From: a virus
Virus genome (UHGV): UHGV-1793687
DNA length: 11,083 nucleotides
Strand: one strand, 5' to 3'
The notes under the pieces are model-generated. The model saw only the letters and a list, made by a program, of their open reading frames with translations. It made no database searches and was not told the DNA's origin. Positions 6,121 through 10,938 of the stretch are shown here, in pieces. Numbering within the stretch: position 1 is the stretch's first letter; each line of letters starts with the position of its first letter. Both the position numbers and the translations under genes were made by a program.

Positions 6121-6624
6121 ATGACTGCATATCTGTACCGGATGCCTGTTGGCATTGCCGGGGCTATCTCTCGCCCGCAGGACTTAACCGTCGAACCGGT
6201 GGTCCTTAAATCCGATAACGCCTTTGCTGCCTATGGGCTGGCTGGTAAATACGATGATGACGGTTTTTTCGTGCCGCTGGAGGACGGTGACACCGCCGAC
6301 AAGGTGAAGGGGATCTACGTTCGTCCGTATCCGACCACATCGCAGCCAGACATGGTTCGCCAGGTGGGGACGGATAAGAATTTCCCGGGCGACGCCATGA
6401 AACGTGGCTACATGACCGTTAACCTTGGATCTGGCTTCGATGCCAGCACCATCAAAAAAGGTGATCCTGTCTACGTGGTCGTTTCGCTCGATTCAACCAT
6501 TGACGTGCCGCTGGGCGGCTTCATGTCCACGTCCGTCAGTGGCAAAAACGTGGCGCTGACCAACGCCGAATTCACAGGGGCCGGTGACGCTAACGGCAAT
6601 GCAGAAATCTCCTGGAAGATTTAA
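6121..6624 (+). CDS. Hypothetical phage structural protein (position suggests head decoration or accessory capsid protein)
   Basis: 167-aa ORF with ATG 6121 and AAAGGA 7 nt upstream. It is tightly coupled between the scaffold-like gene and the major capsid gene. I do not recognise a family from the sequence. Confidence 0.65.
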   Translation: MTAYLYRMPVGIAGAISRPQDLTVEPVVLKSDNAFAAYGLAGKYDDDGFFVPLEDGDTADKVKGIYVRPYPTTSQPDMVRQVGTDKNFPGDAMKRGYMTVNLGSGFDASTIKKGDPVYVVVSLDSTIDVPLGGFMSTSVSGKNVALTNAEFTGAGDANGNAEISWKI

Positions 6625-6635
6625 GGAACAGACGA

Positions 6636-7577
6636 ATGATTACTTTTGATCAGGCAACCGTTGATAGCTCTGGTGCCTTTCTCATCGGGGAGCTGGAGCG
6701 ACTCGACCAGACGCTGAACCTGCCGCTGGTGGGTTACACCTGGACCCGCGATATTCAGTTGCGTGAAGACGTTTCTATCGCAGATGACATTTCCAGCTGG
6801 ACTAACACCAGCTTTGGCGCTGCGGGTACTGGCGCAAATCCGAACGGTAAAAACTGGGTAGGCAAAGACTCAACCGCTATTGCTGGCGTGAACGTGGATA
6901 TCGGCAAATCCGGTAACCCGCTGAACCTGTGGGGGATGGAACTTGGCTGGACCGTTGTAGAGCTGGCAGCAGCTCAGCAGGTAGGTCGCCCGATTGACAC
7001 CCAGAAGTACGACGGGATGCAGCTCAAATGGCAGATGGACAACGACGAGCAGGTGTATGTTGGCGATTCCGCATTAAACCTGAAAGGCCTTGTTACCCTG
7101 AACGGTGTTCCTGTCAACAACGCTGCCAAAACGTGGGCAACCTCAACACCGGACGAAATCCGCGCAAGCATTAACCAGGTGCTGTCTGATGCGTGGGCCG
7201 CTTCTGGTTACTCTGTGGTTCCGCGTGATTTGCTGATCCCGCCAGAGCAGTTTGCTCTGTTGTCCAGCATCATCGTTTCATCTGCGGGTAACCAGTCCCT
7301 GTTGACGTACCTTCAGACTAACACCATCAGCTATCACCAGAACGGTGTTCCGCTGAATATCCGCGCGGTTAAATGGCTGAAAGGCCGTGGTGTGGGGAAT
7401 AAGGATCGCATGGTTGCGTACACCAACGATAAAAAATACGTCCGCTATCCGCTGGTGCCGTTGCAGAGCGTTCCTATCCAGTATCGCGGTCTGTACCAGA
7501 TTGCGACCTACTACGGCAAGCTCGGTGCGGTTGAGCCAGTGTACAAAGAAACCCTGTCCTACGTGGACGGTATCTGA
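6636..7577 (+). CDS. Major capsid protein (DUF2184-like, HK97-fold predicted)
   Basis: 313-aa ORF with ATG 6636 and AAGGA overlapping the upstream stop. Size, position after the scaffold-like gene, and a strong hairpin immediately downstream fit a highly expressed capsid gene. The family call is from memory of DUF2184-type capsid proteins. Confidence 0.7.
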   Translation: MITFDQATVDSSGAFLIGELERLDQTLNLPLVGYTWTRDIQLREDVSIADDISSWTNTSFGAAGTGANPNGKNWVGKDSTAIAGVNVDIGKSGNPLNLWGMELGWTVVELAAAQQVGRPIDTQKYDGMQLKWQMDNDEQVYVGDSALNLKGLVTLNGVPVNNAAKTWATSTPDEIRASINQVLSDAWAASGYSVVPRDLLIPPEQFALLSSIIVSSAGNQSLLTYLQTNTISYHQNGVPLNIRAVKWLKGRGVGNKDRMVAYTNDKKYVRYPLVPLQSVPIQYRGLYQIATYYGKLGAVEPVYKETLSYVDGI

Positions 7578-7587
7578 TAACCAGAAC

Positions 7588-7603
7588 GGCCCCGAAAGGG
7601 GCC
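7588..7603 (+). terminator. GC-rich stem-loop (GGCCCC-GAAA-GGGGCC) 3' of the capsid gene; likely mRNA-stabilising or partial terminator hairpin
   Basis: Perfect 6-bp G/C stem with a GNRA (GAAA) tetraloop, 11 nt after the capsid stop. No U-tract follows; an AAGGA RBS and the next ATG (7619) come directly after. Confidence 0.4.
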
Positions 7604-7618
7604 AGAAGGAAACTGAAA

Positions 7619-7903
7619 ATGGCAAAAGAAAAGCTGGTTACCATCCATGTTCACACCCCGTTTACGCTGACGCTCGGCGATCAGTCAAAACAGGAGTTTG
7701 GCCGGGGACGGCATAACGTGCCGGAAGAGGTCGCGTCTCACTGGTTCACCCAGGCGCACTCTGAGCTTTCCGAAAGCGTGATTAGCGACACCAATGATCT
7801 GCAACCCGTTATCGACAGCCTGCAAGCGCAGATTGCTGCCGCCCAGACTGGCGGTAATGGGGCGAAAGATGCCAAAGAATCAAAGTCTGCCAGCGGTAAG
7901 TGA
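7619..7903 (+). CDS. Hypothetical small phage protein (94 aa)
   Basis: ATG 7619 with AAGGAA about 8 nt upstream, directly after the hairpin. The C-terminus is low-complexity and Lys/Ala-rich (…[25 protein letters not shown]). No family recognised. Confidence 0.55.
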
Positions 7904-9236: not shown

Positions 9237-9774
9237 CACCAGCACAGAGCGCGGCTGGCTGACACCCACCAGCGGCGATCCGGATTATGACGAATCGCTC
9301 GACAGGCTGTTAAGCCAGTGGATGCGCAACGTTTCCGGCTTGCCGGCTGGGATGGTTCGCCCGCGCTGGCAGAAAGACCAACCGCCATTGCTACCCATTG
9401 AAACGAACTGGTGCGCGTTTGGCGTTACCGGGTTGCTCATTGATAACAACCCTGCATTCACCGGGCAGACTGAAGAGGGCGCTCAGCTCTGGAGGCATGA
9501 AACGTTCGAGTGCATGGCGTCGTTCTATGGTCCGGCTGGTATGTCTTATGCGTCCCGTTTTCGCGATGGTATATCTGTCCCGCAAAACAATGCTGAGCTG
9601 AACGCGCTTGGTTTATCCCTTGGCGACTATACCGCTCTGACCCCTTTCCCCGAACTTATCAACCAGCAATGGGTTCGCCGTTACGACATGACGGTGCGAC
9701 TGCGCCGGAAGGTTGTCCGCGAGTATGGCATCAAATCGCTGGTGGAAGTGCCAGTCACCTTTTTTGGAGAATAA
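9211..9774 (+). CDS. Hypothetical phage protein (neck / tail-terminator candidate)
   Basis: The track ORF starts at 9169. ATG 9211 and TTG 9226 both overlap or abut the upstream stop at 9234-9236. It ends 3 nt before the sheath gene. No family recognised. Confidence 0.6.
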   Translation: MGERPLSNNTSTERGWLTPTSGDPDYDESLDRLLSQWMRNVSGLPAGMVRPRWQKDQPPLLPIETNWCAFGVTGLLIDNNPAFTGQTEEGAQLWRHETFECMASFYGPAGMSYASRFRDGISVPQNNAELNALGLSLGDYTALTPFPELINQQWVRRYDMTVRLRRKVVREYGIKSLVEVPVTFFGE

Positions 9775-9777
9775 ACT

Positions 9778-10938
9778 ATGACGCAGGGCTTACCTGTATC
9801 CAACGTTGTAAACGTTGATGTGATCATCTCGCCGAAAGCGGCTACTGGTCGTAACTTCGGCGCATTGCTAATCCTTGGCTCTTCCACTGTCATTCCGGTG
9901 ACAGAACGCATTCGCCTTTATGCGTCCGTTGAGGACATTGGCGAGGACTTCGGAGTCGACAGCCCGGAATATGAAGCGGCGCAGGTTTTCTTCAGCCAGT
10001 CGCCGAAGCCGACGCAGGTTTATGTTGGCCGCTGGGCGAAGACGCTGACCTCTTCCGAAGGTGGAAGCGTGGAAACCATCGTGCAAGCTGTTAATGCCTG
10101 CCTGCAATATACCAACTGGTATGGGCTGGTTGTCGCTGATGATGTTGCTGATGGCGGCGATGTGCTTGATGCTGATGACGTGATTGAGGTTGCTAAACTC
10201 ATCGAAGCGTCCAGCCTGAGCCGCATTTTCGGGGTAACATCTGCCGACGCCGATATTATCAGCACGACTTCGACGACCGATGTTGCGTCGAAATTAAAGG
10301 CTGGCAAGTATTCCCGTACCTTTGTTCAGTATTCCACCAGCAGCCCTTATGCGGCTGTTTCAGCTTTCGGTCGCGCGTTTACTGTCAATTTCAACGGCAG
10401 CAATACAACCATTACCCTGAAATTCAAACAGGAACCGAGCGTAACCTACGAAACGCTGACGGTAGGACAGGCGGCGGCTGTGGATGCGAAGAATGCGAAC
10501 GTGTTCGTGTACTACGCCAACGACACGGCGATCCTGCAACAGGGCGTCATGGCGAACGGTGACTTCTTCGACGAGCGCCACGGGCTCGACTGGTTGCAGA
10601 ACTACGTTCAGACCAATCTCTATAACCTGCTTTACACCAGCACCACCAAAATTCCGCAGACTGACGCCGGTGTGACCCGTCTGCTTTCCAACGTTGAACA
10701 GTCCATGGATCAGTCCGTCACGAACGGTCTGGTAGCGGCTGGCGTGTGGAATGGTGGCCCTATCGGACAGCTGAATTCCGGCGATACGCTGACCAAAGGC
10801 TATTACGTCTATGCACAGCCGCTGGTGCAACAGGCGCAGGCCGAACGCGAAGCGCGCAAAGCACCGTTAATTCAGGTGGCCTGTAAGCTGGCTGGCGCAG
10901 TTCATTATGCCGATGTGCAGATCAACGTGGTTCGCTAA
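9778..10938 (+). CDS. Tail sheath protein (DUF3383-like)
   Basis: 386-aa ORF with GGAGA upstream, immediately followed by a gene whose N-terminus matches the DUF3277 tail-tube family. The sheath-then-tube order is the canonical contractile-tail arrangement. The family call is from memory. Confidence 0.7.

Follow-up and report, generated by a model that had tools for sequence, protein, structure and literature searches.

A GC-rich hairpin without a U-tract after the major capsid gene of an E. coli-type prophage: a candidate post-transcriptional boundary for head-gene mRNA

Terminator-type hairpins located right after major capsid genes are already familiar. In T7, the leaky terminator T-phi follows gene 10, which encodes the major capsid protein, and raises the level of capsid message relative to that of the downstream tail genes, while its 3′ hairpin stabilises the mRNA. 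Intercistronic hairpins that stabilise mRNA are likewise known, for example the REP sequence between malE and malF and the hairpin of the Rhodobacter puf operon, both of which are devoid of terminator activity, lie 3′ of the more-needed cistron and serve as a barrier to 3′ exonucleases. Closer in genome type is the P22-like phage L, for which a putative terminator has been reported where the procapsid gene module ends, within the Q-driven late operon (bioRxiv 10.1101/2020.10.05.325894). According to the same authors, terminators inside operons occur commonly, in roles that are not known (10.1101/2020.10.05.325894). Beyond this remark, literature searches yielded no functional study of post-capsid hairpins in lambdoid phages and no transcript mapping for the prophage family considered here.

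The hairpin described in this work lies in a window of 11,083 nt, by which we mean the whole stretch of DNA that was analysed (UHGV virus genome UHGV-1793687). It shares with phage L the placement of a terminator-type hairpin right after the coat or procapsid genes, within what relatives indicate to be one late operon under Q-type antitermination. The phage L elements are, however, predicted to be full rho-independent terminators, whereas the window hairpin is not followed by a U-tract, and the capsid family also differs from that of P22-like phages, being of the DUF2184 type and associated with a myovirus tail. Canonical terminators occupy the equivalent site in remote members of this same capsid family (24–27% identity), namely Klebsiella phage vB_KpnM_KpV79 (Jedunavirus) and the Vibrio phages CP-T1 and 1.278.O; in KpV79 a rho-independent terminator with a G-C stem and a UUCG tetraloop is annotated after the major head gene. 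In all three, unlike in the window, a proper T-tract is present and the next gene lies further away, and KpV79 does not have a Q-type lambdoid genome. The T7 element resembles the window hairpin as a stable hairpin immediately after the capsid gene, but T-phi terminates T7 RNA polymerase, possesses a U-run and a much longer stem, and is not homologous. With respect to the malE–malF and puf hairpins, the resemblance lies in a stable stem-loop positioned 3′ of a cistron needed in larger amounts, although REP elements occur in many genomic copies with longer imperfect stems, whereas the window hairpin is 6 bp long and present in a single copy both in the window and in a related prophage of 35 kb.

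The window covers the late (structural) region of a temperate phage and corresponds to an E. coli-type prophage. All of its genes lie on the + strand, in the order HNH endonuclease, small and large terminase subunits, portal, head-morphogenesis protein, DUF2213 scaffold/protease-like protein, cement protein, major capsid protein, neck genes and tail sheath. The HNH endonuclease gene (112–609) is found directly 5′ of the small terminase gene (560–1165), in the usual HNH-plus-terminase packaging layout; the small-terminase reading frame of the program-made list overlaps the HNH gene, and the start chosen by PGAP is later, at the equivalent of about position 611. The gap between the capsid gene and the next gene is 41 nt and coincides exactly with the range given in the preliminary description (7578–7618). 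None of the other gaps between the approximately 15 tightly packed genes is longer than 15 nt, which makes it the largest of the window; the remaining junctions overlap or span 1–14 nt when starts are taken as annotated in a prophage with 97% DNA identity. Downstream of the gap, the phrog_2619 gene opens the head-completion/neck block. Two in-frame stops stand in tandem at the end of the capsid gene, TGA (see the Table) and TAA (7578–7580).

Table. Features of the capsid gene 3′ junction, in coordinates of the window
Feature	Position	Strand	Basis and remarks
Major capsid protein gene, 313 aa, DUF2184 / PF09950 type	6636..7577	+	ORF list; PHROG phrog_264 major head protein, E 2e-97; Pfam PF09950, E 5e-86
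Capsid stop codon TGA	7575-7577	+	Sequence
Spacer from capsid stop to hairpin, 10 nt (UAACCAGAAC)	7578..7587	+	Sequence; varies in relatives (sequence; length 0-13 nt)
Hairpin 5′ arm GGCCCC	7588..7593	+	Sequence, fold; paired in each relative having the hairpin
GAAA tetraloop (GNRA class), C-G closing pair	7594..7597	+	Sequence, fold
Hairpin 3′ arm GGGGCC	7598..7603	+	Sequence, fold
Shine-Dalgarno (SD) core AAGGA of the next gene	7606..7610	+	Starts 3 nt past the stem (7604-7605 between); ends 8 nt before ATG 7619
Downstream gene, 94 aa, phrog_2619 (function unknown)	7619..7903	+	PGAP name 'STY1053 family phage-associated protein'

The junction reads ATC TGA TAA CCAGAAC GGCCCC GAAA GGGGCC AGAAGGAAACTGAAA ATG. 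The preliminary description had placed GGCCCC-GAAA-GGGGCC 11 nt after the capsid stop and before the next SD, and both sequence and folding bear this out, given that the first stem base is the 11th nucleotide after the stop, with 10 nt between. On RNA folding, the minimum-energy and centroid structures alike contained the six-pair hairpin. Taken alone, the hairpin has a folding energy of −13.3 kcal/mol, with all six pairs being G-C. No other perfect hairpin of at least 6 bp in the window is as stable (the next reaches −9.5), and none of the others lies outside a coding region. A scan of the whole window against Rfam with E values up to 10 gave no match at 7578–7618. In the minimum-energy fold, a tentative outer helix also joins 7578–7584 (UAACCAG) to 7634–7640 (CUGGUUA, codons 6–8 of the next gene); the hairpin, the SD and the AUG would all lie within it. 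We did not adopt this helix, as it is predicted solely in the subclade of the window, has its 3′ arm in coding sequence and offers no covariation.

Efficient intrinsic termination by E. coli RNA polymerase needs a U-tract, and the junction contains the G+C-rich stem-loop of an intrinsic terminator while lacking the U-tract of about 7–8 nt directly after the stem. Specifically, the tail following the stem is AGAAGGAAACUG, with one U in 12 nt, and a terminator scan made no call at the hairpin on the + strand; the hairpin was called on the minus strand only, with the tail TTCTGGTTAT. The earlier observation that a poly-U run is missing is thus correct, and the view that the element is unlikely to be a strong intrinsic terminator is supported.

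The stability of the hairpin does not by itself exceed chance. When the 11 kb window was shuffled 300 times with dinucleotides preserved, an equally stable small hairpin arose somewhere in 121 cases, for which reason we rejected any claim of significance drawn from the window alone. What does exceed chance is the position of the hairpin in the 41-nt gap together with its recurrence in relatives. A hairpin of ≤−10 kcal/mol was present within 60 nt of the capsid stop in 21 of 23 dereplicated genomic relatives, as compared to 58 of 1449 equally sized control windows; the nominal p-value of 3e-26 for this comparison overstates independence because the 23 loci are related.

We collected 273 loci with capsid relatives (53–100% identity) from GTDB genomes, IMG/VR and GenBank phages, representing 131 distinct sequences downstream of the capsid stop. 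These comprise a close clade, with capsids at least 69% identical to that of the window, and a distant clade at 53–59%. A GC-rich hairpin starting 0–13 nt after the capsid stop was observed in roughly 90% of the distinct sequences (80 of 91 in the close clade and 37 of 40 in the distant clade), and the flanks on both sides of it diverge freely. When RNAalifold was applied to 28 close-clade sequences picked by position relative to the stop alone, the post-capsid hairpin was the sole consensus structure. Within this same set, 16 sequences have G-C and 11 have A-U as the pair at the base of the stem. In the close clade the four core C-G pairs are invariant, and as such neither support nor oppose pairing; a sequence-specific site would also fit them.

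Stems found in the close clade include GGCCCC/GGGGCC, AGCCCC/GGGGCU, GCCCC/GGGGC, GGCCCCC/GGGGGCC and AUGGCCCC/GGGGCCAU, and those of the distant clade include GGCGGG/CCCGCC, GGCGAGG/CCUCGCC and CGGGGGC/GUCCCCG. Between the clades all six pairs differ on both sides, according to a loop-anchored count made on hairpins that had been preselected as best hairpins. A figure of 341 paired out of 342 from the loop-anchored set is circular, as these hairpins had been selected as hairpins in the first place. Alignment of loop-centred 20-mers from both clades with MAFFT matched up G-runs and not structure, and pairs were therefore counted by a script anchored on the loop. Taken together, relatives retain the hairpin, exchange G-C for A-U at the pair at the stem base and replace the stem outright between clades. 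This is the compensatory change that marks a conserved structured RNA, and with it the conservation check proposed in the preliminary description has been passed.

The composition of the loops is also informative. GNRA loops (GAAA, GCAA, GUAA, GCGA and GGAA) are found in 79 of 117 distinct sequences and UNCG loops (UUCG and UCCG) in a further 4, such that one or the other is present in 83 of the 117; CUGGC, UGGC and ACAU are among the remainder. GNRA and UNCG loops are stable classes when read on the + strand only. In addition, among the 41 distinct hairpins whose two strands are not tied in stability, the + strand RNA surpasses its complement in 33. The loop classes and the higher stability of the + strand therefore indicate a role at the RNA level on the coding strand, that is, for a hairpin in the sense transcript.

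In contrast to the hairpin itself, the T-tract is labile. No more than two T residues occur in the 8 nt after the stem in 73 of 80 close-clade sequences, whereas at least five are found in 25 of 37 distant-clade sequences, which gives these the full shape of an intrinsic terminator; exceptions exist in each clade. Since the T-tract comes and goes while the hairpin is constant, termination as such is not the conserved property. In these sequence comparisons, it is the hairpin that is conserved across the capsid family, with the U-tract being optional. This is the one finding that goes slightly past the textbook picture; the element is otherwise ordinary and of a familiar kind.

The position of the hairpin is fixed with respect to the capsid gene. 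Its distance from the capsid stop remains 0–13 nt, whereas in distant relatives the next gene follows at varying distances, an arrangement that anchors the hairpin to the capsid cistron at its 3′ end. Nearly all close relatives have an SD (AAGGA or CAGGAG) within a few nucleotides after the hairpin. A minority of lineages do without the hairpin, namely Xenorhabdus loci and Yersinia phage YP3, in which the capsid stop and the next start overlap (TAAATG). Loci of this type, with no gap and no hairpin, are L019, L021, L033, L210, L211, L213 (TGATG), L258, L261 and L283 (Yersinia phage YP3, 12640–12650), and a gap without a hairpin is rare (L242, L247, L030 and L123). The capsid family consequently alternates between a hairpin-filled gap and direct stop/start coupling, and because some members use the overlap without a hairpin, the hairpin is dispensable.

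A second allele of the junction, AUGGCCCC-CUGGC-GGGGCCAU, was observed about 10–30 nt after the capsid stop in L036, L042, L051, L052, L056 and similar IMG/VR loci. It is linked to a shorter downstream gene and is the commoner allele among the closest E. coli relatives collected (capsid 97–100% identical). The C-run and G-run of this allele vary in length (from 4 to 9 C), which could reflect either slippage or assembly error, and for the 9-C variant (L052) a scan of loops of 3–8 nt found no hairpin of ≤−8 kcal/mol. The exact hairpin allele of the window is present in about 100 complete E. coli genomes, among them those of O19:H7 730V1 (NZ_CP061764) and MINF_1D (NZ_LR890198), and strains suitable for a direct test therefore exist.

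With respect to transcription of the late genes, the window itself extends over neither an early region nor a Q region, and its Q context is inferred from relatives, which are lambdoid mosaics. In Salmonella phage SEN34 (88% capsid identity), a Q-like gene is followed by two tR′-like terminator hairpins, the lysis genes and a strong terminator, and then by the genes for terminase and head proteins. The prophage of E. coli I3, with 97% DNA identity over the window, contains Q, a promoter-like site and, about 35 nt further, a 13-pair terminator, with at least two more canonical terminators 5′ of the terminase genes. E. coli O19:H7 730V1 combines the exact hairpin allele with a Q-like protein (phrog_753), and has a promoter-like site where the Q-like gene ends and, about 80 nt further downstream, a strong terminator. 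Late transcription in these relatives thus has to pass several canonical terminators on its way to the head genes, implying that the polymerase is terminator-resistant. Given Q-type antitermination and these upstream terminators, termination at the hairpin during lytic growth is unlikely. We also considered a coupling between loss of the T-tract and Q-type late control; this was not supported, as Yersinia phage YP3, the single annotated distant-clade genome compared, has a Q gene yet no hairpin.

These observations lead us to propose that the hairpin most likely works after transcription and not by stopping RNA polymerase. Our preferred explanation, which we advance tentatively, is that a terminator-derived hairpin without a U-tract marks the 3′ boundary of the head-gene block in a lambdoid late operon and serves as a post-transcriptional barrier that shields head-gene mRNA from 3′ exonucleases. 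According to this model, a Q-modified, terminator-resistant polymerase would transcribe straight past the hairpin, and endonucleases would then cleave the long late mRNA. Enzymes that degrade in the 3′-to-5′ direction (PNPase and RNase II) would trim the resulting pieces until the hairpin is met, such that fragments ending at the hairpin, containing the capsid cistron and perhaps the upstream cement and scaffold cistrons, would outlive the neck and tail RNA. The longer-lived capsid message might then help to supply the several hundred capsid subunits required per virion. In lineages that bear a T-tract, the hairpin could double as a leaky terminator for unmodified polymerase. The gene immediately 5′ of the capsid gene (6121–6624) has matches to the cement/minor capsid families PF22758 and PF23982, and for this reason the segment under the putative protection of the hairpin probably carries two high-copy head proteins.

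The barrier model fits the conservation of the hairpin without its U-tract, its anchoring in distant relatives to the capsid stop and not to the next start, and the selection of extra-stable tetraloops. In both position and structure the junction has the attributes of an intercistronic stabiliser, with a stable stem-loop 3′ of the more-needed cistron in a polycistronic message. Some points count against this model. The hairpin is dispensed with in the Xenorhabdus loci and in Yersinia phage YP3, the latter possessing a Q gene, and the length of the stem is also marginal. Spickler and Mackie are reported to have found in 2000 that PNPase and RNase II were unblocked in vitro by 5 G-C pairs and blocked by 7. 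On that scale, a stem of six pairs, all of them G-C, falls between the non-blocking and the blocking lengths and would be a borderline exonuclease block.

The preliminary description had suggested protection of the capsid mRNA 3′ end or reduced read-through into the downstream genes, and the missing U-tract and the Q context make reduced read-through the weaker half of that proposal. In its general form this alternative holds that the hairpin is a weak intrinsic terminator or attenuator at which a fraction of the polymerases is stopped or paused, with the consequence either of lowering neck and tail transcription in lytic growth or of blocking spurious, Q-less transcription in the lysogen. We consider it unlikely, though it has real points in its favor: the stem has the shape of a terminator, full T-tracts are found at the equivalent position in L016, L197 and most of the distant clade, the capsid relatives at 24–27% identity have canonical terminators there (annotated as such in KpV79), and partial termination and a block to spurious transcription are both named as possible roles in the phage L paper (10.1101/2020.10.05.325894). 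Set against these are the U-poor tail of the window and the absence of a + strand call in the terminator scan, the retention of the hairpin without a T-tract in nearly all of the close clade, and the requirement that the late polymerase of relatives pass several canonical terminators before it reaches the head genes. A role at the level of translation appears less probable again. In this case the hairpin would prevent ribosomes that have completed the heavily translated capsid gene from scanning onward or re-initiating, and so insulate the next gene, which is weakly needed; alternatively it would leave the SD accessible or become a 5′ protective hairpin following cleavage in the spacer. The proximity of the SD in the close clade (1–5 nt past the stem), a gap that holds the hairpin and the SD and nothing else, the existence of two family states (overlap without hairpin or gap with hairpin) with few gaps lacking a hairpin, and the possible outer helix between the spacer and codons 6–8 of the downstream gene are all in keeping with this idea. 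It is less easily reconciled with distant relatives, which keep the hairpin by the capsid stop while the next start drifts to 20–50 nt and in which the T-tract intervenes between hairpin and SD; moreover, the outer helix is predicted in one subclade only and shows no covariation. Still more doubtful, in our estimation, is a dedicated translational insulator or operator that is not a terminator relic and that, from its place between the most heavily translated late gene and the SD of a low-copy head-completion gene, sets the ratio of capsid to neck protein, whether by blocking ribosome scanning and re-initiation or by binding a late phage protein. If it were true, the hairpin-filled gap and the stop/start overlap would be two solutions to one stoichiometry problem.

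The remaining possibilities are less probable than any of these. That the hairpin is a minus-strand terminator, or a functionless palindrome that is vestigial or arose by chance, is very improbable. The minus-strand call of the terminator scan and the 40% of shuffled windows that contain an equally stable hairpin speak for such a reading; however, every gene lies on the + strand, the T-rich minus-strand tail exists in one subclade only (flanks in other lineages are, for example, CCAATCC and CTTCACAC), the loops belong to stable classes on the + strand only, and conservation at one position amid fully diverged flanks speaks against a neutral relic. The minus-strand terminator was rejected on account of the subclade-specific T-rich flank and the + strand loop classes. 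We assign the lowest probability of all, close to negligible, to a sequence-specific protein-binding site in RNA or DNA, such as a boxB/nut-like hairpin or an MS2-type coat-protein operator. Lambda boxB has the sequence GCCCU-GAAAA-AGGGC, and it resembles GCCCC-GAAA-GGGGC in its short G-C-rich stem and in its loop, which is rich in purines and adopts a GNRA-like fold; invariance of the GCCCC/GGGGC core in the close clade also accords with protein recognition. Nonetheless, the window hairpin has a tetraloop and not a pentaloop, the interior of a late operon is the wrong location for a nut site, and the pattern of loop and stem conservation is unfit for a protein site, with loops in relatives including UUCG, UCCG, CUGGC and ACAU and with stems replaced outright in the distant clade. 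A search for boxA (CGCUCUUUA-like) gave no + strand match within 90 nt of the hairpin and fewer total matches than expected by chance; the nearest + strand match has 2 mismatches and lies 93 nt upstream, inside the capsid gene. On these grounds the boxB/nut assignment was rejected. A stimulator of frameshifting or read-through that would extend the capsid was likewise rejected, as there is no slippery site, the capsid gene ends in tandem stops (TGA TAA), and the frame relation is not conserved, with a stop-to-next-ATG offset of 44 nt in the window versus 43 nt in the L058-type allele. A REP-like repeat was rejected because one copy of the element occurs in the window and a search of the related 35-kb prophage L115 gave no match to GCCCCGNRAGGGGC.

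The exonuclease-barrier model, if true, would provide a mutable handle on an old question, the very unequal output of structural proteins from one late transcript driven by Q. The model would also bear on the presence of 'terminators' inside antiterminated late operons, the point on which the phage L paper calls the role unknown.

The junction also has consequences for annotation. Because the U-tract is optional in this capsid family, terminator predictors that require one miss the element, and annotators sometimes extend the start of the next gene through the hairpin. An example is gene 8 of SEN34 (L114, NC_028699, 7057–7458), for which the annotated ATG arises from a C-to-T change in the hairpin flank (AATGGCCCC) and the annotated coding sequence passes through the hairpin; the conserved SD and ATG past the hairpin, which PGAP chooses in E. 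coli, are the likelier start. Similarly, in Vibrio phage CP-T1 (L278, 1337 onward) the downstream gene is annotated from 12 nt after the capsid stop, so that its coding sequence runs through the terminator hairpin. In Yersinia phage YP3 (L283, 12138–12644) the downstream gene abuts the capsid stop and there is no hairpin at that position. Elsewhere in the window, a terminator-like sequence, GCUGGUG-GAAG-UGCCAGU followed by CACCUUUUUU, was observed on the + strand at 9738–9765, within the last codons of a neck gene whose reading frame ends at 9774, with the ATG of the sheath gene at 9778. The equivalent site in the E. coli I3 prophage (L115, 21645–21662) has an altered loop and 3′ arm and pairs better.
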